Counted from the first letter of the stretch, positions 144 to 51,373 are shown. The stretch: 64,000 nt of DNA from Alphaproteobacteria bacterium (GCA_965203915.1 OZ241918.1:430642-494641), one strand, 5' to 3'. Made by a program: numbers and translations. Notes: generated from the letters alone by a model not told the origin.

Positions 144-402
144 ATTATATTGACTTTTATGGCTAGTTAATCTATACAAAATTATATTGACTTTTATGGC
201 TAGTTAATCTATACAAAATTATATTGACTTTTATGGCTAGTTAATCTATACAAAATTATATTGACTTTTATGGCTAGTTAATCTATACAAAATTATATTG
301 ACTTTTATGGCTAGTTAATCTATACAAAATTATATTGACTTTTATGGCTAGTTAATCTATACAAAATTATATTGACTTTTATGGCTAGTTAATCTATACA
401 AA
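144..402. repeat. Seven head-to-tail, apparently 100% identical copies of a 37-bp unit (attatattgacttttatggctagttaatctatacaaa)
   Basis: Direct reading: unit starts at 144, 181, 218, 255, 292, 329 and 366, with no spacers. The array ends 72 bp upstream of the pstS ATG. Confidence 0.95.
372..400 (+). promoter_or_regulatory. Sigma70-like promoter inside each repeat unit: -35 TTGACT, 17-bp spacer, -10 TATACA (coordinates given for the pstS-proximal copy; six identical copies upstream)
   Basis: TTGACT at 372-377, spacer 378-394 (17 nt), TATACA at 395-400. Orientation reads into pstS (start 474). A Shine-Dalgarno AGGAAA sits 8 nt before the ATG. Confidence 0.45.
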
Positions 403-473
403 TAGGGTATTGAAATGGGAATTTCATCACATTTTTTACTAGAGAGAGAATAACAGGTTAGGAAAATTTCGTT

Positions 474-1463
474 ATGAATAAAAAAATAATTTTTACTACA
501 TTGGGCGCGTTGTTGTTGGCCACCCAGCCAATTAATTCTTTTGCGCGCGATTTTTTGCGGTTCGCGGGGTCGGGGACTGTCTTCCCCTACGTTAGTGCCA
601 CCAGCGAAAATTGGTCCAAAACCACCAACAACAAAGCACCCGTTATTGAGCAAATCGGCACGGGCGCGGGTTTTAAAAATTTTTGCATGGGCATGGGCGA
701 TAACAGCGCCGATGTAGCCATGGCATCGCGCACCATCAAACCCGAAGAAAAAGCCGCCTGCCAAAAAGCGGGGGTTACCGATATCATCGAATTAAAATTT
801 GGCAATGACGGCATCACCGTGGTGCAGGCAAAAAATGCCGCGCCGCTTGCCCTATGGCGTGCCGATCTTTTCCTAGCCATGTGGGGCGAAAACAATGGCA
901 ACAGCGAACGCAAAACATGGAAAGCGGTGGATAAAAACCGTTTCACCAGCGACAGGCCGCTTAAAATCTATGGGCCAGGTGCGGCCTCTGGCACTTACGA
1001 TGCTTTTATCGAATTGGCCTTAGAAAAAGGTGCGGGCGATGCAAACCCAAAATTCACCACCGAGCAGGTCAAAAAAATTGCCCGAGAAATTCGCCGCGAT
1101 GGCATTTACGTGGATAGCGGTGATAATTATAATGTTATTATCAACAAAATAAAATCTGACCCGACGGCTATCGGCGTGTTGGGGTATAGTTACCTCAATG
1201 CCAACCGCGACAGCGTGGTTGCGGTAAGCATCGACGGTATCATGCCCACTGCCGATACCATCCGCAGTAGGAAATACCCTTTATCGCGTCCTGTGTTTTT
1301 GTATGTGAAGGGCGATACTTTAAAAAAGAACGCCAATTTGAAAAGTTTTCTAAAATTCTTCATGGATGACAGCAACATTGGCGACAATGGTAAAATGGCC
1401 AGCATCGGGCTGGTATCGCTCAAGGCGGCGGAACGCGCGGCGGCCGTGGCGAAAATAAAATAG
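474..1463 (+). CDS. pstS: Phosphate ABC transporter substrate-binding protein PstS
   Basis: 329 aa with an N-terminal signal peptide. PBP fold motifs (GSGT..FPY, YGPGAASGTYDAF). First gene of a pstSCAB-phoU array. Confidence 0.9.
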   Translation: MNKKIIFTTLGALLLATQPINSFARDFLRFAGSGTVFPYVSATSENWSKTTNNKAPVIEQIGTGAGFKNFCMGMGDNSADVAMASRTIKPEEKAACQKAGVTDIIELKFGNDGITVVQAKNAAPLALWRADLFLAMWGENNGNSERKTWKAVDKNRFTSDRPLKIYGPGAASGTYDAFIELALEKGAGDANPKFTTEQVKKIAREIRRDGIYVDSGDNYNVIINKIKSDPTAIGVLGYSYLNANRDSVVAVSIDGIMPTADTIRSRKYPLSRPVFLYVKGDTLKKNANLKSFLKFFMDDSNIGDNGKMASIGLVSLKAAERAAAVAKIK

Positions 1464-1549
1464 CAAAAACAAAATAATTGTTATTCGTTATCATTCATAA
1501 CAATCCCCTGGCGGATGAAGTTATAATCGGCTAGTAGTCAAAAAAAAAT

Positions 1550-2740
1550 TTGATGATATTTATTTTATGTCTTTTTTTGTGGGGCATGGTCGGGCTTGGC
1601 TTTAATTATTTGGTGCGGCGCAAAATTTTCCTACGCCAACTGCTTGTCAACAAAATGGGCAAGCAAAAACTTACCCGTCCTATAGATTTTTTATTTTTGC
1701 TGTGGCTGGTGTTGTTGGTAACGGGCAGTTTGGTATTTTTTGTCACGGGGTATTTTTCTTTGTTGCCCATTCAGCAACTTATTTTGTCGCTTAGCGTGGT
1801 GTTGGTGGCGGGCGGCGGTTTTTATTTGCTGTTGAATTATAATTGGCAAGCCCATTTGTTGACCAGCCGCTTGATAGAGGGTTTGCTATTCATGGGCACC
1901 TTGGTCAGTTTATTTATTTCTTTGGCCATTTTGGCAACATTGTTGTGGCAATCGGTAAGGTTTTTTACCATCACCCCGCTGTTCGAATTTTTGTTTTCGA
2001 CCAATTGGAACCCCAGCACGGGCGAAAATTTTGGTGCCCTACCCATATTTTGGGGCAGCCTGGTTATTGCCTTGATAGCCATGATGGTGGCGACGCCGTT
2101 GGGTATTTTTACCGCCATATATTTGCATGACTATTGTAATAAAAAATTGGCGGCGTGGTTAAAACCCATGTTGGAATTGTTGGCTGGGGTGCCCACCGTG
2201 GTTTATGGTTTTTTTGCCATTTTGATAATTAGCCCGTTGATAAAACATTTTTTTGCTTTGTTTGGTTTGGCGGCTTCTTCTGAAAATGCCCTGTCGGCGG
2301 GGTTGGTGATGGGTATTGCCATCACACCTATCATCAGCTCCTTAAGCCAAGATGCCTTGAATGCCGTGCCCCATGAATTGAAGGAAGCCAGCCTTGGCCT
2401 GGGTGCCACCAAATCGGAAACCATGAGGCAGGTTATATTACCCTACGCCAGCGGCGGTATTTTTGCCGCGATATTGATTGCCATCAGCCGCGCCGTGGGG
2501 GAAACCATGATAGTCGTCATGGCGGCGGGGTTAACCGCAAACCTCACCATCAATCCTTTAGAAAGCCTGACCACTGCCACGGTGCAGATAGTTAGTTTGT
2601 TAACGGGCGACAGTTCGTTCGACAGCCCGCAAACCTTGTCAGCCTATAGTTTGGGCTTATTTTTGTTTATCATTACCTTGGTCATCAACAGCCTATCTAT
2701 CAAATTAAACAAACAACAAAAATTAAAAGGCAGGATATGA
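1550..2740 (+). CDS. pstC: Phosphate ABC transporter permease PstC (long alphaproteobacterial form; true start may be internal)
   Basis: 396 aa polytopic membrane protein. Core reads AISRAVGETMIVVMAAG. Position is between pstS and pstA. Confidence 0.85.
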   Translation: MMIFILCLFLWGMVGLGFNYLVRRKIFLRQLLVNKMGKQKLTRPIDFLFLLWLVLLVTGSLVFFVTGYFSLLPIQQLILSLSVVLVAGGGFYLLLNYNWQAHLLTSRLIEGLLFMGTLVSLFISLAILATLLWQSVRFFTITPLFEFLFSTNWNPSTGENFGALPIFWGSLVIALIAMMVATPLGIFTAIYLHDYCNKKLAAWLKPMLELLAGVPTVVYGFFAILIISPLIKHFFALFGLAASSENALSAGLVMGIAITPIISSLSQDALNAVPHELKEASLGLGATKSETMRQVILPYASGGIFAAILIAISRAVGETMIVVMAAGLTANLTINPLESLTTATVQIVSLLTGDSSFDSPQTLSAYSLGLFLFIITLVINSLSIKLNKQQKLKGRI

Positions 2741-4134
2741 AAAAACCAAACAAGCCAATCAAGCCCAGCCATCGCGCTGTTATCAAGCAAGGATTGGCGC
2801 GGCGTTACCGCGCCGAAAAACGTTTTCGCCTGTGGGGTTTGGCTGCGGTGGTGTTTGCTTTTTGTTTTTTGTCTTTTTTGTTGGTGAGTTTGACGGTGCG
2901 CGCCCTGCCCAGTTTTTATCAGGTGGAAATTACCTTGCCACTTCGATACGATGTTGCGGTGCTTGATAAGCAAAAGAAATTAGAGGGGGAGATGGTTATT
3001 TTGCAAGGCGACATGGCGGGGGTGCTAGCCCAGGGATTATACACGGCCTTGCAAGGGGGCAATGTAGGCGATGTCGCTAATAACCTAACCAACAACAGCG
3101 ACCAGCAACAAAAATCCAAAGGGGCGGCGCAAAACCTAACCACCACTGTGCCAGCGGCATGGCGCGATTCGTTGCTTTCATTGCTGTCGCCCGATGCTGT
3201 TTTTGAAACCAGTCGTTATTTATACCAACAACAAACCATGTTGAATAAGATGGAGGAGAGAAGTGTCCTTGCCTCCAGCTTGGTTGATAATTATATAAAA
3301 GGTCATGGTGCCAACAATCTAACCCTGGAGCAAAAAAATTGGCTGCAAATATTAGCCCATAAAAAATTGATTCATAAGAAGTTTAATTGGCGATTCTTTA
3401 CCAACGGCGATAGTCAACGCCCCGAATCGGCGGGTATTTTAAACGGCGTGTTGGGCTCGCTGTTGACGATTGCTATTTGTTTTGCGGTTTCTTTTCCCAT
3501 TGCCATTATGGCTGGCATTTATTTGGAAGAATTTTTTGACGCCAAACATGCGCGACCCTTTTGGCAAAGGTTTTTTAACGTGGTGGAGGTTAACATCAAT
3601 TCGCTGGCCGCGGTGCCTTCCATCATTTATGGCCTGTTGGGTTTGTCGGTGTTGGTTAATTTTTTTGGCGTGCCGCGTTCATCCTCTCTTGCGGGGGGGT
3701 TGACCCTGGGCTTGATGACCATGCCGCTATTAATTATCGTAACCCGCAGTGCGCTGCGCGCCGTGCCCAATAATATTAGGGAGGCCGCTTTGTCGCTTGG
3801 CATTAACCGTTGGCAATTGGTGTTGCATCACCTGTTGCCCCTGTCATTATCGGGTATTTTAACGGGAACGATATTGGGGTTATCGCGTGCCGTGGGCGAA
3901 ACCGCCCCCTTGATATTGATAGGCATGGTGGCATTTGTTATGTCGGCGGCGACCGATGTAACATCGCCCACCACAACATTGCCCGTCCAGGTTTTTTTGT
4001 GGGCCAACCATGCCGACACGGGGTTCATTTATAAAACGGCGGCTGCAATTATTGTTTTGCTTTTTTTGATTTTTCTGATTAACTTAACCGTGATTATTAT
4101 TCGCCAAAAATGGACAAAACAATCGAGGGTATAA
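2737..4134 (+). CDS. pstA: Phosphate ABC transporter permease PstA with a large N-terminal periplasmic extension
   Basis: 465 aa. C-terminal half is the permease core ([16 protein letters not shown]). Start overlaps the pstC stop by 4 bp (ATGA). Confidence 0.85.
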
Positions 4135-5607: not shown

Positions 5608-6531
5608 TTATTTTATTTCTTTGCTTAAAAAATAAGCATAGGCATCTTTGATACCATCGACCAAAGATTTGGTGGGCTTAAATCCCAAATCATGAAAAAA
5701 TTGCGAATCCATTATTTTTTGTTTCATGCCAATTGGTTTGTCTAGCAAAAATTGCCATGTGCCTTGAAAACCCAGCACCTTGGCGGTGGCTTGGTAATAA
5801 TCTAAAATACTAATATCATGGTTAACCCCAACATTGGTCACGGCGGGTAATTTTTCAATATGCAACAAAGCGAACCAAATGGCGCCCGCCAAATCAAACG
5901 CTGACATTAATTCGCGCCGCGCCGTGCCGTCGCCCCATAATTCAACGCTCACTTTTTTTTCTTGGACGGCGTGATGAATTTTTCTAATAACCCCCGCAGG
6001 AAAATGGGAAGTTACGGCATCGAAGTTATCATAACGGCCAAACAAATTGGGCGGGATGAGGGTTTTATATTGCAAGCCAGTATTTTGTTCGGCAAAAAAT
6101 TGACATAATTTTAAGACAGACATTTTGGCCAAGCCATAACCTTCGTTGGTGGGCTCGAATGGCCCGCTCAACATCGATGCTTCCTTCAACGGGTTGGGCG
6201 CCATTTTGGGATAAATGCAAGAGCTTCCCAAATTGATTAATTTCTTTATTCCCAATTCTTTGGCGGCCAACACAACATTTTTTCCCATTTCAAAATTTTC
6301 GATTAAAAAATCGGCCTGCGCGCTAAGGTTGGCGACAATCCCGCCAACCTTTCCCGCGGTATGAATAACCGCATCGGGCGCGACATCCTTCATGGCTTGC
6401 TTAACGCTACGAAAATCGAGGAGGTCAACCTCCGCCCTTGCTGGCGCGGTGATGACATGGCTGCCCGCAAGCGGATGTTCGCGACTGTTGCGTCCCACCA
6501 TGCCGCGACCGCCCGTTAAAAAAATTTTCAT
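5608..6531 (-). CDS. fcl: GDP-L-fucose synthase (GDP-4-keto-6-deoxymannose 3,5-epimerase/4-reductase)
   Basis: 307 aa. N-terminus KIFLTGGRGMVG. Directly downstream of gmd on the same strand. Confidence 0.88.
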   Translation of the reverse strand: MKIFLTGGRGMVGRNSREHPLAGSHVITAPARAEVDLLDFRSVKQAMKDVAPDAVIHTAGKVGGIVANLSAQADFLIENFEMGKNVVLAAKELGIKKLINLGSSCIYPKMAPNPLKEASMLSGPFEPTNEGYGLAKMSVLKLCQFFAEQNTGLQYKTLIPPNLFGRYDNFDAVTSHFPAGVIRKIHHAVQEKKVSVELWGDGTARRELMSAFDLAGAIWFALLHIEKLPAVTNVGVNHDISILDYYQATAKVLGFQGTWQFLLDKPIGMKQKIMDSQFFHDLGFKPTKSLVDGIKDAYAYFLSKEIK

Positions 6532-6536
6532 GATAG

Positions 6537-7574
6537 TTATATTTTCTTTGCTTGCGCCAAATCAACTTCCGTCATTTCCTTGACCAATTGGGCAAAAGAA
6601 ATTTTGGGCTGCCAATTTAATTTGCTTTTTGCTTTGCTGGCATCGCCTAACAATGTTTCAACCTCGGTCGGGCGGAAATATCGTTGGTCCACTTTAACTA
6701 TTTCTTGGCCATTGCACAACCCAACTTCGTTTACGCCCTTGCCTTGCCAATCTATTTTCATACCCAACTCTTTGCCAACCAATTCGACAAATTCCCTTAC
6801 CGAATGTTGTTCGCCCGTGGCGATAACAAAATCTTCGGGCTTGGGTTGTTGCAACATCAACCACATGGCTTCGACGTAATCTTTGGCATGACCCCAATCG
6901 CGCAAGGCATCCAAATTACCAAGGTAGAGGGTTTTTTGTTTGCCCAATTTTATTCTGGCCAAGGCGCGGGTTATTTTACGGGTGACGAAGGTTTCGCCCC
7001 TGATGGGCGATTCGTGATTAAACAAAATACCATTGCAAGCAAAAATACCATAGGCTTCGCGATAATTAACGGTTATCCAATAGGCATATAATTTGGCCGC
7101 GGCATAGGGGCTGCGTGGATAAAATGGCGTGGTTTCACTTTGTGCTTCTTTATAAATGCCACCATAAAGTTCGGAGGTTGAGGCCTGATAATAACGCGTG
7201 GTTTTTTCTAAGCCCAAGGTGCGGATAGCCTCCAGCAAACGTAGCGCCCCCATGGCATCCGAATTGGCGGTGTATTCTGGTTCTTCGAACGATACGGCGA
7301 CGTGGCTTTGTGCCGCCAGGTTATAAACTTCATCGGGTCTAACCTTAGATAAAATATGAATAAGGCTTGATGAATCGGTCATGTCGCCATGGTGCAGGTG
7401 GAAATGGGTTTGCCCTTCATGCTCGTCATGAAATAAATGGTCAATGCGCGCGGTATTAAACAGTGAGGTGCGACGTTTGATGCCATGCACTTCATAACCT
7501 TTGTTTAATAAAAATTCTGCCAGGTAGGCACCGTCCTGTCCCGTAACCCCTGTTATAACTGCTTTTTTACCCAT
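6537..7574 (-). CDS. gmd: GDP-mannose 4,6-dehydratase
   Basis: 345 aa. [32 protein letters not shown] is the canonical Gmd N-terminus. Confidence 0.92.
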
Positions 7575-7711
7575 GGTAAGTCTTTAGCCAAATTACTTTT
7601 ATTTGACAACTTGTTATTTGGTAGAGGGCGGGCGGGGCAAGCGGGACGGCGTTGACGATGCCCTTAATTTATTGACAAGCAAGGCGCAATTTTATAAATA
7701 CCTTAGGGATT

Positions 7712-9280
7712 ATGGAAACTATTTATCCTGTTTTGTTGTGCGGCGGTGTTGGTAGCAGACTTTGGCCATTATCGCGCCAAGCCAAGCCAAAACAATTTTT
7801 GTCGCTGCTGGATAAAGAACAAAGCCTGTTTCAATCAACCATCGCACGGTTAAAAAATTTTTCTCACCAAGCCAATGTTTATAACGGTTTTGCCATCGGC
7901 GAAATGACCTGTATCGGGGCGGGCATGGTGGATGGCGTCATGGCGCACCAATTTTTTATCTATGAACAATTACAAGCCATGGGGACGACCGCCAATATAT
8001 TATTGGAACCCATGGCGCGCGATTCGGGACCCGCGATATTGGCGGCTTGCCTGCATCATCAGCAACAGGTTGATGATAAACATGGCGCCTTGTTGATATT
8101 GCCTTGCGACCATTATATTGAACATCCCCAAGAATTTTACCGATCCTTGGCGGTGGCGATGGAAAAATTAAACACCGAGAGAGATGCCATTGTTACATTT
8201 GGTATTATGCCCCATGCGGCGTCAAAAAATTATGGTTATATTTTACCCGATGCAAAACAGGCAGGAAAAAATCAGGGGGATAAAAAACAGGGGGATAAAA
8301 ACATAGACTGCCTGCCCGTTACAACATTCAAAGAAAAGCCAGATGAAAAAACCGCGCAACATTATATCGAACAGGGTTATTTGTGGAACAGTGGTATATT
8401 TTTATTTTATCCCGAAACCGTTATTGCCGCTTACCAACGGCTGCAACCCGATACTTACAAAGAAGTGCTGGCGGCGGTAACGGGCATGGTGCGCGACCCA
8501 TCGCCGCAATGGCCATTTTGGTGGTTGGTGGAGGAAGCCTATAAAAAAATCAAACCCTTGTCGTTTGATTATGCCATCATGGAAAAAAACAAAAAAAACT
8601 TTGTGGTGACCATGAACAAAAACAGCAATTGGGGCTGGTCGGACCTTGGTAGTTTTGATGAAATAAAACGCCTTCATCAACAGGATAAGGATGGCAATGC
8701 CATTCACCAAGTCGACGACAAAACCCCGCCCGTTGTTCTGCATCAATCAACCAACAATTTGGTGATGAACAGCGGCGGGCAAACCATTGCCCTGTTGGGG
8801 GTGGAGGATAAGGCGGTTATCGCCACCAAGGATGCCTTGTTGGTGGCCGATTGGCAATATCTGTCGGAAATGAAAGAATTGGTAAAAAAATTACAAGCAG
8901 GCAACGGCAACATCACCGCCCATCACAGCGCCGTCACCCGCCCATGGGGTTATTATGAATCGCTCAAGGTTGATGATGGTTATCAAGTAAAAAAATTGTT
9001 TTTAAAACCTGGCGCCAAAATCTCGCTCCAGAAGCATCGCCACCGTTCGGAACATTGGGTGGTGGTCAAGGGCAAGGCCAAGGTAACCCTGGGCGATAGC
9101 GCCGAAACCTTGCAAGAAAAAATTTTATTGGCCAACCAATCGATCTATTTGCCCGTTGGCATTATTCACCGTTTGGAAAATATCGGCGAAGGCGATTTGG
9201 AATTGATAGAGGTGCAGACAGGAAGTTATTTGGGTGAAGACGATATTGAACGTATCGAGGATATTTATCGCCGCAAATAA
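7712..9280 (+). CDS. manC: Bifunctional mannose-1-phosphate guanylyltransferase / mannose-6-phosphate isomerase (ManC/CpsB type) with a Lys/Gly/Asp-rich insertion
   Basis: 522 aa. N-terminal NTP-transferase (PVLLCGGVGSRLWPLS) and C-terminal cupin (HRHRSEHWVVVKG). Confidence 0.85.
   Translation: METIYPVLLCGGVGSRLWPLSRQAKPKQFLSLLDKEQSLFQSTIARLKNFSHQANVYNGFAIGEMTCIGAGMVDGVMAHQFFIYEQLQAMGTTANILLEPMARDSGPAILAACLHHQQQVDDKHGALLILPCDHYIEHPQEFYRSLAVAMEKLNTERDAIVTFGIMPHAASKNYGYILPDAKQAGKNQGDKKQGDKNIDCLPVTTFKEKPDEKTAQHYIEQGYLWNSGIFLFYPETVIAAYQRLQPDTYKEVLAAVTGMVRDPSPQWPFWWLVEEAYKKIKPLSFDYAIMEKNKKNFVVTMNKNSNWGWSDLGSFDEIKRLHQQDKDGNAIHQVDDKTPPVVLHQSTNNLVMNSGGQTIALLGVEDKAVIATKDALLVADWQYLSEMKELVKKLQAGNGNITAHHSAVTRPWGYYESLKVDDGYQVKKLFLKPGAKISLQKHRHRSEHWVVVKGKAKVTLGDSAETLQEKILLANQSIYLPVGIIHRLENIGEGDLELIEVQTGSYLGEDDIERIEDIYRRK
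8273..8302 (+). repeat. 15-bp perfect tandem duplication (cagggggataaaaaa x2) inside manC, encoding ..NQGDKKQGDKN..
   Basis: Read directly; the duplication is in frame. Confidence 0.85.
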
Positions 9281-40956: not shown

Positions 40957-42387
40957 ATGCATTTATCGGTTTTTGATTTGTTTAAAGTGGGGATTGGGCC
41001 TTCCAGTTCTCATACCGTGGGGCCCATGGTCGCCGCGAAACGTTTTGTTACCGACCTTAGCACGCAAAAAAAATTGTTTGACGTTGCTAGCGTCACGGTG
41101 AAATTATATGGGTCCTTGGCCCTGACGGGTTTGGGCCACGCGACTGACCGTGCCATTGTGCTGGGTTTAATGGGCGAACGCCCCGATGAAACCGACCCGA
41201 ATTTGGTCGAAGAAAAAATCAAAACCTTGAAAGAAAAAAAACATCTATTGTTGGATGGCGAGCACGATATAGAATTTGTCTATGAAAAAAATTTGGATTT
41301 TCGTTATGGCGAGTTTAAAGAAAAACATTCCAACACCATGGAATTCATTGCCACCGACAAACAGGGTCAGGAATTATTTCGTGATACCTATTATTCAGTT
41401 GGCGGCGGTTTTGTATTAAGCGATGAAGAATTTGAACGCGGCACCAGCAATGTGGCGGCGGCCGCCAATTTAACCGTGCCGAATATTTTTAATAATGGCG
41501 AGGAGTTATTAAACATCGCCAAAAAAAAGAACATGACCATCGCCGAGGTGTTGATGGAAAATGAATTAACCTGGCGCAAGAAAGAGGATATTGAAAAGGG
41601 CATAGATAAAATTTGGGCGGTGATGGAAGCCTGCATCCAGCGTGGTATAAGCCAAGAGGGGATATTGCCTGGCGGCCTTAATATTCGGCGCCGTGCCAAG
41701 CAGATAGCCGACAATTTGGATAGGTCGAATCAAGAAATAAAAATGAAATTAGGGGCTATCAATTTGGAAGATATTCCGATGAAGACGATGGATTGGGTTA
41801 ATGTTTTTGCTTTGGCAGTTAACGAGGAAAATGCAGCGGGTGGGCGCGTTGTCACCGCCCCCACCAATGGGGCGGCGGGGGTTATACCCGCGGTGATGGC
41901 CTATTATCATCGCTTTGTCCCAGGGGGGAAGGATGTAAAAAACCTTCGTATTTTTATGTTAACCGCGGCGGCGATAGGGATGCTGTATAAAAAAAATGCC
42001 TCCATTTCCGCGGCGGAGGTTGGATGCCAAGGCGAAGTTGGCGTGGCATGTTCGATGGCGGCGGCGGGTTTGACGGCGGCGATGGGCGGCACGATGGACC
42101 AAGTGGAAAATGCCGCCGAAATTGGCATGGAACATAATTTGGGGCTGACTTGCGACCCTATCAATGGTTTGGTTCAGGTGCCGTGCATCGAGCGCAACAC
42201 CATGGGGGCGGTGAAGGCCATCAATGCGTCGCGCCTGGCCCTGCATGGCGATGGCACGCATTTGGTGTCGTTGGATAAAGTCATTGAAACCATGATGGAG
42301 ACAGGCAAAGACATGTTGCATAAATACAAAGAAACATCCGAAGGCGGCTTAGCCACCAAGGTTTCGGTTGCCTTACCAGAATGTTAG
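40957..42387 (+). CDS. sdaA: L-serine dehydratase (Fe-S, single chain)
   Basis: N-terminus [27 protein letters not shown] extends upstream to 40921. Confidence 0.9.
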
Positions 42388-42430
42388 GGTTAGGAAAGTT
42401 TTTTAATGTTAGGGTTAGGAAAGTTTTTTA
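42381..42430. repeat. 25-bp perfect tandem duplication (atgttagggttaggaaagtttttta x2) spanning the sdaA stop codon
   Basis: Read directly. The second copy supplies the apparent ATG of the next ORF. Confidence 0.9.
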
Positions 42431-44277
42431 GAGAGAGACAAAGCCTGATGGCACAGCGACAAAAGACCAAGCCTAAAAATTGGTATGGCAAGTACACCGC
42501 CGCGATGATTTTTATTGTCATGGTGGTGGTAAGTTTTTCTTCTTTCTATAAAAATACTTTTCATATCGCACCACCCATTTTTTTTCAGCAATTTGGCAGT
42601 GATAATGAAGACAACCTTGTTTTGGGAAGGATATTGGCAGATAAATTCGACATACCCATGGCAACATTTGGCATGACATTGTTGATGTTGCCGCAGGTGC
42701 GGACGCCAAACTTGCAGACTACCGATAAATCACCACCAGCAAAAGATATTGTTCGCACCGATTCCCCAGGTAATTTTTGGGCGATGGATTCATGGCATGG
42801 TTTGGCATTTAATATTTTGCAAAATAATAATAAAATGGATGATATTGTTTTGCTTGGCAACAATATCAATTTTATTAATCAAGCGTTGGATATTGTTGCC
42901 ATAAGCGTTAATAAAATTAAGGTGGATGATAATCATTATTGGGTTTCAAGCAGTGATAATCGTTATGATTTTCACTATGGCTACGATTCGCTGCCCGCGG
43001 CTAAAAAATATATTACCAATTATAGCGGACGCAACCTATCAATTGGCCAATATAAAACCATGGTTTATTATATTGATAACAATGATCCTACTAAAACCGT
43101 TATTGTTACAAGCCTGCCCCGAGCAGCGATTGATAAAATTGATAAACATAGATTTTCGGTTATCATTTCTGGGCAACCCGTAACCGCGGTTGATATCAAA
43201 AAAAATATTCGTTTTGAACCCTACCAAAGCAGCGTCGGGTGGGAAGCCTATGCGGTATCTAGCCTGTATAAATATTTGGGTAATAATTTAAAACATGTGC
43301 AGAAGGTCGAAGCAATGTTATCGGCCATCACGCTGATAATATTAGTTTTTTTATATTACCGTGGTGCTATTTTTCCTAAGGGCTTTGCTGTCATGTTTTT
43401 TTTGACTTTGTTTCTATCGCCCATGTTTACGGCGATGGCGCATAATTTGTATTTCGCGCCTTTTTCATTTTTTCTGCCCGCGATTTTTGCTCTATGCTAT
43501 ATAACGGCTCAATCGGTCGGGGCGCAATGGTCATGGTTGTTATTAACCTACGTGGCATTTGTCATCAGGTTTGGTGGCATGCAATATGATTTTACGCCCA
43601 GTATTATTTTATTGGCGATGGCGCCCACCCTCTATCAATTTTTTGTTGCTAAAAACAAAATACAGCGGTGGCAAGCATGCCAGCAATTTTTTATGATATG
43701 GTTGATGGGGGTTATGGGATTTATCAGTATCATGTTGTGGCAGGCCAACCTAAGAGGTGATGGCAATGTATGGCAAGGTTTATTATTTATTTTTCAAGAC
43801 GAGATAGCGCGAAGGGTTTACCCAGTTGTGCATTTCAACAATGTTGCTGAATATGATATTTCGGCCAAGGCTTCTTATCTATCGGTGTTAAAGATTTACT
43901 TTTTTCATTGGTGGCAAGATATCATTGTTGGCATTCATGGCCGATGGTTTCCATGGTTATTTTGTTGGTCATTGCTAACGGTTGTCGTCAGTTATTTCTT
44001 AAAGCCCTTGCAATCCAGAAAAAATATTTATACGGGATTATTTTTTGCTTTTTTGTCTATTCCTCTCTCGTGGTATATTTTGGCCAAACCTCATGCTTAT
44101 ATCCATACTCATTATTGTTTTATTTTATGGTCGCTGGGTTTTGTGGCGGCCATGTTTACTATTATTATTGATGCTATAAGACATTACTTTAACCTGAATA
44201 TTTCTCTTTCATTTTCAATTGCCAAAAAAAAATATCATTTGCAATTCGCAATAAATAATCATAAGAATCCAAAATAG
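42406..44277 (+). CDS. Large polytopic membrane protein, hypothetical; candidate polyprenyl-phosphate-sugar-dependent (GT-C-like) glycosyltransferase. Probable start 42448
   Basis: 623 aa. N-terminal TM, a ~240-aa soluble domain, then 10 or more TM helices. Low GC. Heads a low-GC locus with UbiA/SDR/GMC genes. Confidence 0.45.
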   Translation: MLGLGKFFRERQSLMAQRQKTKPKNWYGKYTAAMIFIVMVVVSFSSFYKNTFHIAPPIFFQQFGSDNEDNLVLGRILADKFDIPMATFGMTLLMLPQVRTPNLQTTDKSPPAKDIVRTDSPGNFWAMDSWHGLAFNILQNNNKMDDIVLLGNNINFINQALDIVAISVNKIKVDDNHYWVSSSDNRYDFHYGYDSLPAAKKYITNYSGRNLSIGQYKTMVYYIDNNDPTKTVIVTSLPRAAIDKIDKHRFSVIISGQPVTAVDIKKNIRFEPYQSSVGWEAYAVSSLYKYLGNNLKHVQKVEAMLSAITLIILVFLYYRGAIFPKGFAVMFFLTLFLSPMFTAMAHNLYFAPFSFFLPAIFALCYITAQSVGAQWSWLLLTYVAFVIRFGGMQYDFTPSIILLAMAPTLYQFFVAKNKIQRWQACQQFFMIWLMGVMGFISIMLWQANLRGDGNVWQGLLFIFQDEIARRVYPVVHFNNVAEYDISAKASYLSVLKIYFFHWWQDIIVGIHGRWFPWLFCWSLLTVVVSYFLKPLQSRKNIYTGLFFAFLSIPLSWYILAKPHAYIHTHYCFILWSLGFVAAMFTIIIDAIRHYFNLNISLSFSIAKKKYHLQFAINNHKNPK

Positions 44278-44288
44278 CCACAGATTGA

Positions 44289-44894
44289 ATGACAAAGATA
44301 ATTTTTACTATATTTTTTTACGCGCTGGCTGCGCTTGCTGGTTTTGGATTTTATGTTTTGGGTATGAATCTGTTTTTCTCAGCCGGTAAGGATATTTTGT
44401 TCTATCGCGGGCTAGAAATTATTGTTGTTAGCATGGCTATGGTGTTGTTTTGCCTTTTGCTGATAGCGCGTATGAAATTTCAATTTATTAAGAACAAACA
44501 GCAGAGAAGGGCATCATTACAATTTGTACAGGAATTGAAGAGTCAGGTTGTTGCTATTGCTTTGATAAGCGGATTATTGAATCTATGGTTTCATTCCTTG
44601 ATACTTGTAAATTTGGACCGATCGATAAGCGTGTTTTTGTTGGGATACATGAATAACGTTAACAAACCTGTAAGCGAAATTGATTTGCAAACAGCATTTG
44701 ATAATTATTATGTCAAAAATTATAAGGCTATTGGTCGTCGCATCGATGAACAGCTAGCTAGCGGCATGATAACTATTGGCAATGATAATAAAATGACCTT
44801 AACCAATAAAGCTCAAAATTTTCTTATTCTTTCCACTTGGATAACCAATGTTTTTCATAGCGATAGTAGGTTTGTTAATCCTGTCCTTAAATAA
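44289..44894 (+). CDS. Small membrane protein, hypothetical
   Basis: 201 aa with 3-4 TM helices. AT-rich. Confidence 0.45.
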   Translation: MTKIIFTIFFYALAALAGFGFYVLGMNLFFSAGKDILFYRGLEIIVVSMAMVLFCLLLIARMKFQFIKNKQQRRASLQFVQELKSQVVAIALISGLLNLWFHSLILVNLDRSISVFLLGYMNNVNKPVSEIDLQTAFDNYYVKNYKAIGRRIDEQLASGMITIGNDNKMTLTNKAQNFLILSTWITNVFHSDSRFVNPVLK

Positions 44895-44923
44895 ATAAAT
44901 CTGTTAATAATAAAAAAAGGATA

Positions 44924-45976
44924 ATGGGGTATAAAAAGATGAGTAAAAATATACATTTGATAACTGGCGGCGCAGGCTTCGTTGGTATTAATATTGCCAA
45001 GCAATTAATAGCGGCCAAAGAAACGGTCATTATAACCGATGTTTGGCAACCCGATAACAAACCAAAGAATTTCGAATATCTTGATGTCACCGATCGGACG
45101 GCGGTTGATAAATTGTTAAAACATGTGACCCATGTTCACCACAATGCCGCCTTGGTGCCCTTAACGAAAGCAGGAAAAAGATTTCAGGAGGTTAATGTGG
45201 GTGGCACAAGAAATGTCATTGACATGGCATTAAAACATAAAATAAAAATGTTGTGTCATATGTCATCCTCGGCCATTTATGGCATTCCAGAAAATTGTCC
45301 CATTCCTGCCGATACCCCGTTGCAACCTGTAGAGATCTATGGCAGGTCGAAGGCCCTGGCCGATAAAATGGTGCAGCAAGCCATGAAGGATGGCATGCCA
45401 GCATGCTCCATCAGGCCCCGCACTATCATTGGTCAAGAGCGGCTTGGTATATTTGAAATATTATTTAATTGGATTAAAGACAACGCCAATATTTTTATTT
45501 TGGGTAAAGGCGATAATTTATTCCAATTCGTCCATATTGATGATATTGCCAGCGTCAGTGTCAAGGCAGCGTTATTAGAAAAATCGGGATTATTTAATGT
45601 TGGGGCAGAACCCTATGGCAGCTTGCGCCATGATCTAGAAAAATTTATCAAAACGGTGGGCTCCAAATCAAAAGTTATTTCCTTGCCAATTGGTCTGGCG
45701 CAGGCAGCTTTGACGATTGCTGACAAATTGCGCTTGTCGCCCCTGGCTCCTTTTCATTATGCATCTTATCATAAAGATTTTTATTATGAACCCATCCATA
45801 TTACCAAAGCATTGGGATGGAAACCAAAATATGGTAACGTAGAAATGATGGTGGAATCTTATCAATGGTATATCAAGAATTTTTCTTACGGTAATAAAAA
45901 AAATGCTTCGATCCATCGCAAGCCCGTTGCAAAAGGCATATTGGCTATTGCCAAACAGGTATCAAAAATTTTTTAG
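44924..45976 (+). CDS. NAD-dependent epimerase/dehydratase (extended SDR)
   Basis: 350 aa. Glycine-rich motif ITGGAGFVG. Catalytic YGRSK. Confidence 0.8.
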   Translation: MGYKKMSKNIHLITGGAGFVGINIAKQLIAAKETVIITDVWQPDNKPKNFEYLDVTDRTAVDKLLKHVTHVHHNAALVPLTKAGKRFQEVNVGGTRNVIDMALKHKIKMLCHMSSSAIYGIPENCPIPADTPLQPVEIYGRSKALADKMVQQAMKDGMPACSIRPRTIIGQERLGIFEILFNWIKDNANIFILGKGDNLFQFVHIDDIASVSVKAALLEKSGLFNVGAEPYGSLRHDLEKFIKTVGSKSKVISLPIGLAQAALTIADKLRLSPLAPFHYASYHKDFYYEPIHITKALGWKPKYGNVEMMVESYQWYIKNFSYGNKKNASIHRKPVAKGILAIAKQVSKIF

Positions 45977-45985
45977 ATTAAGAAA

Positions 45986-46255
45986 ATGATATTTGTAGAA
46001 ACCATGTTGCGGCAAGCCCTGCCCAAAGAATTTCAAGCCAGCATTCGCCCTCGGCAGATTAATTTTGTGAGGGCGGCATTAAAAAATGCGCCATTTCATG
46101 TCAGGTGGGCCATTGTTGTTTTAACCATGATGTATTTACCATTTGTGTATATCGGTGCCAATCGATGGATAAAAAAATATTTTCATTATTTTCAATTGTT
46201 GGATAGGGTTTATAGATCCCTGGCTTTTCTTATTATTTACGAAGATAAAAAATGA
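45986..46255 (+). CDS. Small hypothetical protein with one TM helix, translationally coupled to the GMC oxidoreductase
   Basis: 89 aa. 4-bp overlap (ATGA) with the downstream gene. Confidence 0.35.
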   Translation: MIFVETMLRQALPKEFQASIRPRQINFVRAALKNAPFHVRWAIVVLTMMYLPFVYIGANRWIKKYFHYFQLLDRVYRSLAFLIIYEDKK

Positions 46256-47736
46256 ATCATTTTATTAATATCGATAACAAGACCAAGGTTTATAAAACCG
46301 ATGTTCTCATCGTTGGCTCGGGGGCGGGCGGTGCAACCATCGCCGATATGTTAACCAAGCAAGGTTTTGAAATTTTGATGTTGGAGGAAGGCGATAGTTA
46401 TCCCATTAAAGAATTAAAAAAACCCGAAGAAGTTTTTACAAAAATATGGCGACATTCGGGTTTGACAGCAACCTTGGGCAAACCCAATATTGCTTATGCC
46501 GAAGGCAAGGCGTTCGGCGGCTCAACCGAAATCAATTCGGCCATTTTCCAACGGCCATACGAGTCGGTTGTGCAAGATTGGCAAGACCAATATAAATTGG
46601 ACGATACCTGGAACCTAAAAAACATGAACAAATATTGGGATGATACCTTTGCCCAAATGAATGTTAGTTATCATGAAAAATACTATGCCGATACGACAAC
46701 CCTGATAGATGGCGCCAAAAAGATGGGCTACAAGAGCGAATATTTATCGGTGGCCATGAATGCCAAAGAAAAAGACGATAGAATTTACGGTTGCCCGGTT
46801 GTGGGCAAGCAATCGATGTCGAAAACGTTGTTGCCCGCCGCCATGAAGCGGGGGATGAAGGTTATCACCAACTGCAAACTTGATAAAATTATTTTCAAAG
46901 GCAAGCAAGCTACCCATGCCCACTGCCAAGTAAAAAAAGGAAACAAAAATATTAGTATCAAGGTAGAATTCAAATATATATTTTGTTGCGCGGGGGCAAC
47001 CAACACGCCGTTGATATTAAAAAGATCGGGCGTCAAGACCATGGATTTTAATAATTTCCAACTGCACCCGACCATGAAGGTTTTTGCTTTGTTTGATAAA
47101 AAAATACAAGATCCGCATTCTATCGTCGCGGCAAGTTATATATCAGAATTTATGCCGAACATACGCATCGCGGGTTCGGTTGTTACCAAAGGTTTTGTTG
47201 GCATGGCCCTGGCCAATAATTATCATCATACCAAACCATTTTTGGACAATATGGAAAATGTAGGGTCATATTATGTTATGATAAAGCCGTTCTCCAAGGG
47301 GCATTTTCGTTTTCTGCCTTTTGCCAATCAATGGATGGATAGTCCGTTGATAGATTACAAATTGACCGATTGGGATTTTGAGCATTTTAAAAAAGGCCTT
47401 ACCTACTTAACAAACACAATGTTTGCCGCGGGGGCAAAAATTATCATGCCCGATATTGCCAATCACGGTGGTTGGCGGTCCATGACAGATTTTAAAAAAG
47501 ATATGTCGCGCACCGCGCAATATAATTTAATGTCGGTGCATTTAATGGCGTCCTGCCCGCCGAGCGGGGTAAAAAACCTTGGGGTGACAAATCCTGAAGG
47601 TCGGGTATGGGGCTATGACAATTTTTATATTGCTGATGCGTCACAAATACCCACGGCGCTTGGTTGCAACCCCCAGGCAACGGTGATGGCCATTGCCAAA
47701 AAATACGCAACCCAGTTTGTTGCCCATTATAAATAA
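46252..47736 (+). CDS. GMC-family FAD-dependent oxidoreductase
   Basis: 494 aa. N-terminal FAD motif VLIVGSGAGGATIA. GMC-like C-terminus. Confidence 0.75.
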   Translation: MNHFINIDNKTKVYKTDVLIVGSGAGGATIADMLTKQGFEILMLEEGDSYPIKELKKPEEVFTKIWRHSGLTATLGKPNIAYAEGKAFGGSTEINSAIFQRPYESVVQDWQDQYKLDDTWNLKNMNKYWDDTFAQMNVSYHEKYYADTTTLIDGAKKMGYKSEYLSVAMNAKEKDDRIYGCPVVGKQSMSKTLLPAAMKRGMKVITNCKLDKIIFKGKQATHAHCQVKKGNKNISIKVEFKYIFCCAGATNTPLILKRSGVKTMDFNNFQLHPTMKVFALFDKKIQDPHSIVAASYISEFMPNIRIAGSVVTKGFVGMALANNYHHTKPFLDNMENVGSYYVMIKPFSKGHFRFLPFANQWMDSPLIDYKLTDWDFEHFKKGLTYLTNTMFAAGAKIIMPDIANHGGWRSMTDFKKDMSRTAQYNLMSVHLMASCPPSGVKNLGVTNPEGRVWGYDNFYIADASQIPTALGCNPQATVMAIAKKYATQFVAHYK

Positions 47737-47737
47737 A

Positions 47738-48604
47738 TTAACCGTTTGCTAAGCAAAATAAAGTAGCCATAAGCAAAAACGCCAGCCAGCTTGCTTTGTC
47801 ACGCGCCACAAACAAGATAGGATCTTGCTTAATGTTGCCCCGCGCGGTTAAAAGCCACAGGCGCGATACCCAATATAAAATAACAAAACCACAAGGCCAC
47901 AGGTAGTAAGGCTTGCTGTAATATTGATAAACCAAATTAATTTTTTCGGTATAAAGCAAAAAGATTAAGGCCGATGTGTAGCCCGCGGCCACGCCAAAAA
48001 ATGATAACATGGTTTTATCGCTCGCCATGTAGGCACGACCATATTGTTTGTTGGAAATATTTAATTCGCTATAACGTTTAATAAGCGAAAGACTTAAAAA
48101 CAAGAACATCGAAAAAGATAACAGCCAAAATGAAATATCGGCCTGGACGGCAACCGTTCCCAGCAAAAGGCGTAAGGTATAAAAACAGGCGAGGGTTATA
48201 ACATCAACCATCATTATTTTTTTTAAGTAATAAGAATAAAGCAAGGTAAGCAATATATAAAAACATAGGGTGCTGACAAACATGTTTGTAAAATGATTGA
48301 TGTGGGTTAAAATAGCCGCCAAACCCAATAAAAAAAATATCATCAATACCCCATGTTGCCAGGGTACTTTACCCGAGGCAATGGCACGGTATTTTTTGGT
48401 AGCATGTTGTCTATCTTGCTTGATATCAATAATATCATTGCTGATATAAACCGCTGACGCAACCAAACAAAAAATAAAAAAACTTGTTAGGCTCAATATG
48501 ATATTATGAATATCATTATATTGATGAGATAAAAAAAGCGGCACCAATATTAAAGAATTTTTTAACCATTGGTGTGGTCGCAACATTTTAAGATACCATA
48601 TCAT
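47738..48604 (-). CDS. UbiA-family prenyltransferase resembling polyprenyl-phosphate 5-phosphoribosyltransferase (DPPR synthase type)
   Basis: Multi-TM. Asp-rich motif NDIIDIKQDRQHATKKYRAIASG. ORF extends to 48712. Confidence 0.65.
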   Translation of the reverse strand: MIWYLKMLRPHQWLKNSLILVPLFLSHQYNDIHNIILSLTSFFIFCLVASAVYISNDIIDIKQDRQHATKKYRAIASGKVPWQHGVLMIFFLLGLAAILTHINHFTNMFVSTLCFYILLTLLYSYYLKKIMMVDVITLACFYTLRLLLGTVAVQADISFWLLSFSMFLFLSLSLIKRYSELNISNKQYGRAYMASDKTMLSFFGVAAGYTSALIFLLYTEKINLVYQYYSKPYYLWPCGFVILYWVSRLWLLTARGNIKQDPILFVARDKASWLAFLLMATLFCLANG

Positions 48605-48787
48605 GCACTGTAAATAGTATATTTTTTTATTGTAAGCAATTTTTAATTTGCTTGGGGCTATGTTTTTTATGGTGGAGTTGGCTACTTGGCAACCACAAAC
48701 CCGATGATTCATTCATTCTTGACATGGTTGTTTGTTGCTAGTATCTATTTTTCTAATTAAAATAGGAACAACCATAGCATTATCGTA

Positions 48788-51172: not shown

Positions 51173-51296
51173 GCCTGTTGCTTATTTTTTTGGTGAAGCT
51201 TGAGGTGGCGAAATAGCCTAGGCCAGATACGCGAGCAAAGCACCTCTTATGGTTTTCTTGCGCTTTGTGCGGGGCTTTGATAAGGGATAATCAGAT

Positions 51297-51373
51297 GTTC
51301 CCGTAGCTCAGCTGGATAGAGCGTAGGATTCCTAATCCTAAGGCCGTTGGTTCGAATCCAATCGGGAACGCCA
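51297..51373 (+). tRNA. tRNA-Arg (anticodon CCU)
   Basis: Cloverleaf folded by hand: acceptor gttcccg/cgggaac, D-stem gctc/gagc, anticodon stem tagga/tccta with loop ttCCTaa, T-arm gttgg-ttcgaat-ccaat, 3' CCA encoded. Confidence 0.85.

Follow-up and report, generated by a model that had tools for sequence, protein, structure and literature searches.

The analysed DNA is a stretch of 64,000 nucleotides from an uncultured Alphaproteobacteria bacterium (GCA_965203915.1, OZ241918.1:430642-494641), referred to below as the window, and the subject of the analysis is a cluster of six neighbouring genes between sdaA and ilvB, for which an initial annotation had proposed a polyprenyl-phospho-pentose donor pathway with its own large membrane transferase. 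All six open reading frames (ORFs) were found at the places given in that annotation and with the motifs it had named. On the plus strand, the first gene encodes a large polytopic membrane protein (42406-44277; ORF of 623 aa), the candidate transferase of the glycosyltransferase fold C (GT-C) type. It is followed by a gene for a 201-aa protein with three transmembrane (TM) helices and a C-terminal winged-helix domain (44289-44894), a gene for an extended short-chain dehydrogenase/reductase (SDR) of 350 aa with a GalE-like fold and the motifs GGAGFVG and YGRSK (44924-45976), a gene for an 89-aa protein with a single TM segment at residues 39-57 (45986-46255) and a gene for a GMC-family FAD oxidoreductase of 494 aa carrying the GSGAGG motif (46252-47736), whose start overlaps the stop of the preceding gene by 4 nt. 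The sixth gene lies on the minus strand (47738-48712; ORF of 324 aa) and encodes a UbiA-superfamily protein of the polyprenyl-phosphate phosphoribosyltransferase type carrying NDIIDIKQDRQHATKKYRAIASG. The earlier family calls for three of these proteins agreed with Pfam, which assigned the SDR to Epimerase/extended SDR (PF01370, 1.7e-36), the flavoprotein to GMC_oxred_N (PF00732, 2.1e-34) and GMC_oxred_C (PF05199, 8.5e-16), and the sixth protein to UbiA (PF01040). No family was matched in the Pfam scan of the 623-, 201- and 89-aa proteins.

The stop codon of sdaA is spanned by a perfect 2 x 25-bp tandem duplication (42380-42430), as had been reported. The unit AATGTTAGGGTTAGGAAAGTTTTTT occurs twice in perfect tandem (Tandem Repeats Finder score 102, 100% matches), none such being expected by chance, and no third copy was present in the 64-kb window. 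For comparison, two relatives were used, both metagenome-assembled genomes of Alphaproteobacteria: a close one (L001/L003, 94% nucleotide identity) and a distant one (L002/L004). For the large membrane protein, M15 (42448; 609 aa) is the probable start, in agreement with the gene call in the close relative. The in-frame ATG upstream, at 42406, was created by the 25-bp duplication. Likewise, the UbiA protein probably starts at M37 (48604; 288 aa), as called in the relatives, which would place its gene at 47738-48604. The GMC and UbiA genes are convergent and their stop codons are 1 nt apart (47736-47738), so there is no room for a terminator between them. The scan for promoters and terminators gave results close to the shuffle expectation and was uninformative.

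The comparison of the UbiA protein with the NCBIfam models gave 330.6 bits on NF006088, a model of 482 positions of which only positions 195-479 were matched; the N-terminal HAD part is thus missing from the protein. Three models of decaprenyl-phosphate phosphoribosyltransferases gave 137, 134 and 101 bits, and the generic UbiA, MenA/UbiA, CyoE and MqnP models gave only 19-41 bits. The sole sequence relatives in the PDB were two entries of Rv3806c (E 5.7e-25). In the alignment with Rv3806c, the NDIIDIKQD segment corresponds to NDVRDVEAD, the NDxxDxxxD motif of cytoplasmic loop II, and IKRYSEL corresponds to GKRYAEL, the KRYxEL motif of the second conserved loop. In the enzyme from Citrobacter, the residues of the NDxxDxxxD motif are required for activity, and the Arg and Glu of the second loop tolerate replacement by alanine (Kelly et al. 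2024, PMC11127046). With 101-331 bits on the phosphoribosyltransferase models against 19-41 bits on the others, and with Rv3806c as the only relative of solved structure, the earlier suggestion is supported that the protein belongs to the branch of polyprenyl- or decaprenyl-phosphate 5-phosphoribosyltransferases (PPPRS/DPPRS), not to that of the quinone or heme enzymes, and it would represent a form without the HAD phosphatase domain.

In the large membrane protein, TM1 is followed by a periplasmic loop with D52-N53-E54-D55, a soluble insert of ~190 aa and a C-terminal helical membrane domain that begins at about residue 265. The protein had no sequence match in Pfam, NCBIfam or the PDB, and the profile of its family likewise matched none of the PDB sequences. 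A word-indexed search returned just two relatives. An exhaustive profile search returned 877 cluster representatives with matches to the C-terminal membrane domain, 183 of them at E <= 1e-30, and when ten members of this family were scanned with Pfam, that domain was left without any family. The GT-C-like fold that the initial annotation had expected was recovered in the structure comparison: the protein has the polytopic architecture of such enzymes, with TM1, an extracytoplasmic loop with juxtamembrane helices and a multi-TM core, and its structural matches include AftA, AftB and AftD. Moreover, the acidic pair just after TM1 is kept in the family, which shows the pattern D-S-E: in a 90-sequence alignment, D52 is present in 58/87 sequences and the position of D55 is occupied by E in 74/87. 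The catalytic residues of GT-C enzymes sit just after TM1, as do D31/E34 in the GT136 enzyme ORF12 (PMC11127046), and D52 and D55 appear to match the site at which these enzymes carry them. The protein of the window departs from the family at several nearly invariant residues (W326M, W336F, W341F, H432Q, N557C and Y562S), and its periplasmic insert (~190 aa) is longer than in the family; both features may be related to a changed donor or acceptor.

The neighbourhood of the GT-C family was analysed in 80 metagenome loci. Of the four commonest conserved clusters of neighbours, two are GT2 enzymes akin to ArnC, PgfS and dolichyl-phosphate hexose transferases, and the other two are a DAO-type FAD oxidoreductase and a xylose-isomerase-like TIM-barrel protein; each of the four was present in 45-58 loci. 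ArnF/SMR/EamA-like membrane proteins of small size were found in fewer loci (13 and 8 of 80). The presence of GT2 and ArnF-like genes matches the classic pattern of a lipid-sugar synthase, a flippase and a GT-C transferase. We infer from the gene neighbourhood only, namely the GT2 and ArnF-like neighbours and a UbiA gene directly upstream of a paralogue in L002, that the large protein is a candidate transferase dependent on a polyprenyl-phosphate-sugar donor. The metagenome cassette itself (L083-L162, many of these loci from human gut), composed of two GT2 genes, the DAO-type and TIM-barrel genes and, in fewer loci, the ArnF/SMR-like genes, was matched to no named system. In the representative examined, the TIM-barrel protein is fused to an epimerase-like part.

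For the 201-aa protein, 26 homologues were found. In the three other lineages examined, they adjoin a polytopic protein of 650-690 aa without a Pfam match, and the two genes overlap or abut in two of these lineages. The loci come from Methylobacterium and metagenomes (L163, 5942-8681; L164, 3205-5801; L166, 701-5164). The large partners are weakly related (E about 1e-8) to a 12-TM protein from the rhizobial loci described below. This arrangement looks like an undescribed two-gene unit, and the likeliest reading of the 201-aa protein is that of an accessory subunit, a recurrent partner of large polytopic proteins.

The SDR, the 89-aa protein and the GMC flavoprotein form a module that recurs far beyond the analysed genome. 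The flavoprotein has the marks of the GMC oxidoreductases (an N-terminal GxGxxG, the N and C domains and a C-terminal His with Asn) and its subfamily comprises 1347 or more proteins at E <= 1e-20. Residues G22, G24, G26, H430 and N473 are invariant in 34 members of the subfamily, and we take H430 and N473 to be the catalytic His/Asn pair. The context of the module was sampled in 80 genome loci around genes of this subfamily, from many phyla. Most of the 80 loci contain an SDR orthologue (220-380 bits) no more than about 10 kb away from the GMC gene, and in many the two genes are adjacent; in the NCBIfam comparison the SDR of the window reached no equivalog. A small ORF that overlaps or abuts the start of the GMC gene is conserved in 33/80 loci, gives weak Gluconate_2-dh3 matches and is homologous to the 89-aa protein, which is thereby a candidate small subunit or membrane tether of the flavoprotein. 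Of six such upstream ORFs tested (Obscuribacterales, Cyanobacteria and Polyangiaceae), five combine the small subunit in one protein with an MprF-type flippase-like TM domain (PF03706, 115-154 bits; L063, 8415-9977; L025, 7727-9523; L054, 8311-9981; L030, 8470-9978). The GMC protein and the SDR have neither a signal peptide nor a TM segment, and the probable target of the module is a lipid-linked substrate on the cytoplasmic side of the membrane. Two 'families' of neighbours lacking TM segments (475 and 393 aa) were discarded, since they are probably antisense shadows in GC-rich loci; the L054 representative lies opposite the SDR gene and overlaps it.

Among the 47 module loci flanked on either side by 5 kb or more, a PPPRS-type UbiA gene lies within 10 kb of the module in 14, including those of Rhizobium, Mesorhizobium, Ensifer, Palleronia, Ectobacillus and Planktothrix. 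It is also found near the module in several loci with shorter flanks, including Rhodoblastus, Acidobacteriota and Bacteriovoracaceae. The rhizobial loci encode a HAD-UbiA fusion, an SDR, an SMR-like protein, the small subunit, the GMC protein, a second SDR and the 12-TM protein of ~660 aa, and in actinobacterial loci the module is accompanied by an AftD-like GT-C protein (seven loci) and by a 10-TM protein of ~700 aa (14 loci). The initial annotation had cast the GMC flavoprotein as a stand-in for the mycobacterial DprE1; the part of this proposal that gained ground is the linkage, as SDR, small subunit and GMC genes are associated with a PPPRS-type UbiA gene in several phyla, and from this association a DprE1/DprE2-like oxidation and reduction of polyprenyl-phospho-ribose by the module is plausible. 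Some of the clusters with both PPPRS and GMC genes also contain DUF218 proteins of the YdcF/SanA/ElyC type (L006, 3534-4085; L057, 12460-13038; also L005 and L081).

On balance, the cluster probably encodes a periplasmic glycosylation system with a lipid-linked pentofuranose donor, a variant of the three-component systems described by Kelly et al. (2024). In the proposed pathway, to which homology and motifs contribute the first step, the UbiA-type enzyme would transfer 5-phosphoribose from phosphoribosyl pyrophosphate (PRPP) to polyprenyl phosphate, probably undecaprenyl phosphate, at the cytoplasmic face, and the 5'-phosphate would be removed by an enzyme encoded outside the cluster, which is a gap in the scheme. 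The GMC flavoprotein, held at the membrane by the 89-aa subunit, would then oxidise the C2' or C3' ring hydroxyl of the lipid-linked ribofuranose, and the extended SDR would reduce the keto intermediate with inverted configuration, giving lipid-linked arabinofuranose or xylofuranose. This epimerisation is proposed by analogy with DprE1/DprE2, its only support being the conserved gene linkage. A second gap is the flipping of the donor to the periplasm, for which a flippase outside the six genes would be needed. Finally, the GT-C-fold protein and its three-TM winged-helix partner would transfer the pentose to an acceptor in the envelope.

Several results weigh against this reading. The UbiA protein scores below the curated cut-off of every NCBIfam model (330.6 against 351 bits for the best one; the other cut-offs are 207-474). 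The tblastn search of the 64 kb with the HAD domain of a fused relative revealed no HAD/PRP phosphatase (best E 1.1), and no MATE, SMR or GtrA flippase was detected with Pfam and NCBIfam among the six cluster proteins. The Foldseek comparison of the large protein with the PDB returned nothing at E <= 0.001; the TM-scores were 0.2-0.36, the best 11 matches being again of the GT-C type. A UbiA gene was present near the GT-C family in 1/80 loci and GT2 synthases are the usual partner elsewhere; this lineage therefore appears to have recruited the GT-C family to a donor made by UbiA. Likewise, the GMC/SDR module has no PPPRS gene within 10 kb in 33/47 well-flanked loci, so it may act on other substrates. 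The SDR resembles 3-beta-hydroxysteroid dehydrogenase (3-beta-HSD) and sterol dehydrogenases, including sterol-4-carboxylate dehydrogenase, and the C-terminus of the GMC protein resembles cholesterol oxidase.

The comparison with known systems shows both shared and deviating components. In Citrobacter youngae O1/O2, ORF15 is a PPPRS-PRP protein, ORF14 a MATE flippase, ORF12 a GT-C enzyme of GT136 and ORF13 an SDR epimerase (Kelly et al. 2024, PMC11127046). The window shares with these systems the UbiA-type PPPRS with NDxxDxxxD, the GT-C transferase with acidic residues after TM1 and the auxiliary SDR, and the GT-C gene is encoded together with PPPRS in the window as well as in L001 and L002. 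Unlike in the Kelly systems, the UbiA protein has no fused HAD phosphatase, with none found in the 64 kb, and no MATE or other flippase is present among the six genes, whereas the rhizobial loci do have an SMR-like gene. The GT-C protein appears to fall in a separate family, one that lacks sequence matches in Pfam, NCBIfam and the PDB. The GMC flavoprotein with its small TM subunit and the three-TM winged-helix protein are extra in the window. GMC enzymes are unmentioned in PMC11127046. A literature search for a connection of GMC enzymes with DprE1, UbiA or pentofuranose pathways found no paper in the library searched, and the sugar-converting enzymes and the transferase family are most likely not previously described for a lipid-linked pentose pathway.

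The mycobacterial decaprenyl-phospho-arabinose (DPA) pathway consists of the DPPRS Rv3806c, the phosphatase Rv3807c, DprE1/DprE2 and the GT-C enzymes of the Emb and Aft types. The cluster has the same type of first enzyme and the same logic, in which an FAD oxidase and an NAD(P)H reductase precede a GT-C transferase. However, its flavoprotein is of the GMC type (GMC_oxred_N/C) and not of the VAO type as DprE1, its reductase is an extended SDR of 350 aa (PF01370) and not a classical short SDR as DprE2, so that neither belongs to the DprE1 or DprE2 family; moreover, a PAP2 phosphatase is absent and the host is Gram-negative. The difference from the ArnC/ArnE-F/ArnT and GtrA/GtrB/Gtr(type) systems of periplasmic modification lies in the donor, which in the window would come from a UbiA-type, PRPP-dependent enzyme instead of a GT2 synthase dependent on a nucleotide sugar. 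With the membrane-bound GMC sugar dehydrogenases of the gluconate 2-dehydrogenase type, the module shares a small subunit encoded by an overlapping upstream gene, whose homologues give the weak Gluconate_2-dh3 matches. It differs from them in that the subunit, as read from its sequence, has no twin-arginine motif of the RRxF type, in the single-TM tether, in the absence of a cytochrome c subunit and in the linkage to glycan-donor genes.

An unlikely, though not negligible, alternative is that the cluster makes plain ribofuranose, or xylofuranose formed by the SDR alone as a GalE-type epimerase similar to ORF13 of C. youngae O2, and that the GMC/89-aa pair has some other task, for instance oxidising the sugar further, or the acceptor or the lipid. 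A single SDR is sufficient for the conversion of ribofuranose to xylofuranose (PMC11127046), the SDR of the window is extended and GalE-like and not a classical SDR like DprE2, and the rhizobial loci have two SDRs beside the GMC gene. However, the SDR, small subunit and GMC genes keep company in different phyla, pointing to a single functional unit, and the combination of an FAD oxidase with an NAD(P)H reductase fits the logic of DprE1/DprE2. It is still less probable that the module is independent of the UbiA and GT-C genes, with a different membrane substrate, for instance a polyol, a glycolipid or a lipid of the hopanoid- or sterol-like kind, and that its position in the cluster is a historical accident. 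The repeated linkage with PPPRS in unrelated phyla, the company of the module elsewhere, which includes SMR-like proteins, GT-C proteins of the AftD-like kind and further large polytopic proteins, and the fact that both lineages keep it beside UbiA and GT-C genes in spite of rearrangement argue for a common function, whereas the 33 loci without PPPRS and the likeness to 3-beta-HSD, sterol-4-carboxylate dehydrogenase and cholesterol oxidase would suit independence.

The base composition and the age of the cluster were analysed together. The region 42388-48787 has a GC content of 0.385 against 0.458 in the rest of the window, which is the minimum among all stretches of 6.4 kb in the window (mean 0.450, sd 0.019), and GC at third codon positions is 0.36-0.48 in the cluster genes against 0.50-0.54 in sdaA, ilvB and ilvN. 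The markedly low GC between sdaA and ilvB that the first reading had pointed out is thus real, and together with the repeat at the left edge it would be the ground for regarding the cluster as a recently acquired genomic island with the 25-bp repeat as an insertion scar. This interpretation is very improbable. The close relative L001 carries the 25-bp unit as a single copy, so the duplication marks no island boundary and, its copies being adjacent, is better explained as a recent, strain-specific tandem slip. An attachment site or a target-site duplication was considered for the same repeat and rejected, as the copies are adjacent, a third copy is absent and the close relative has a single one. 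Among the six cluster proteins, no match to a mobility family was found with Pfam and NCBIfam, and there is no integrase and no flanking repeat. The cluster has identical gene content and order in L001/L003, whose nucleotide identity to the window is 92-97% in the cluster genes and 88-96% in the flanks, so the divergence of the cluster equals that of its surroundings.

In the distant relative L002/L004 these genes likewise surround sdaA and adjoin ilvB, in a rearranged order, and the GC content of the cluster genes in L002 is 0.30-0.39 against 0.40-0.47 in the flanks. Since the same genes occupy the locus in a relative whose sdaA is 85% identical, and are low in GC there as well, the cluster is old at this locus and its low GC is lasting. 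Judged by these comparisons, it is an old, vertically inherited and compositionally deviant part of the lineage and not a recent insertion. The identity between the window and L002 is 69% for the SDR, 63% for the GMC protein and 53% for the 89-aa protein, that is, these are conserved as much as the neighbouring housekeeping genes (55-72%). Identity is far lower for the UbiA (37%), GT-C (35%) and 201-aa (35%) proteins. Genes for the donor synthase and the transferase are fast-evolving or exchanged, which is common for surface-glycan genes. L002 contains a second copy of the GT-C family after its UbiA gene, separated by a 15-nt gap and split into overlapping ORFs of 186 and 430 aa, which indicates a frameshift, a pseudogene or an assembly error. 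A third, unrelated GT-C-like protein of 602 aa, with a DEGWY motif after TM1, is encoded just after the 201-aa-type gene of L002; the regions of L002 that hold these features are 393-3024 and 5973-8430. The hhalign comparison of the GT-C family with this 602-aa protein and with the 658-aa rhizobial protein detected no relationship, and they represent different families.

The least probable explanation takes the UbiA protein for a prenyltransferase of the aromatic, quinone or heme kind and the product of the cluster for a prenylated small molecule or lipid instead of a glycan donor. It could draw on the membership in the UbiA superfamily (PF01040) and on the scores below the PPPRS cut-offs, but it is already largely refuted by the 19-41 bits on generic, quinone and heme models against 101-331 on those of the PPPRS type, by the PDB, where no other UbiA structure was matched, and by the partner protein with a GT-C fold.

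Lipid-linked pentofuranose donors were long held to be special to mycobacteria, and the DprE1/DprE2 step is a major tuberculosis drug target. Such donors are widespread in the surface glycans of Gram-negative bacteria (Kelly et al. 2024, PMC11127046). A broader proposal, which we put forward tentatively and do not regard as the favoured outcome, is that the SDR, the single-TM subunit and the GMC protein form a phylum-spanning, non-orthologous replacement of DprE1/DprE2, a second, so far unnoticed route from polyprenyl-phospho-ribofuranose to arabino-, xylo- or even lyxofuranose. Its range would comprise Proteobacteria, Cyanobacteria, Bacillota, Acidobacteriota and, probably, Actinomycetota and Myxococcota, and it would feed several uncharacterised GT-C families, one of them with a membrane-anchored winged-helix partner. 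If the module does convert lipid-linked ribose, evolution would have solved the DprE1/DprE2 step a second time, independently. The module would then also provide a bioinformatic marker predicting pentofuranose-bearing glycans in many phyla, including nodulating rhizobia, of which cultured strains exist. In addition, the analysis defines a GT-C family of 877 cluster representatives, whose tested members lacked a match in Pfam, together with a new family of membrane-anchored winged-helix partner proteins.

One further difference between the close relatives was noted downstream of the cluster. L001 has an extra segment of ~1.17 kb (18726-19899) with an Acyl_transf_3 gene of low GC content (0.34) that is absent from the window. 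The counterpart of this segment in the window is 51173-51295, between ilvN and the tRNA-Arg(CCT) gene (51297-51373). The acyltransferase gene is strain-variable; it neighbours a tRNA gene and is not far from the glycan cluster.

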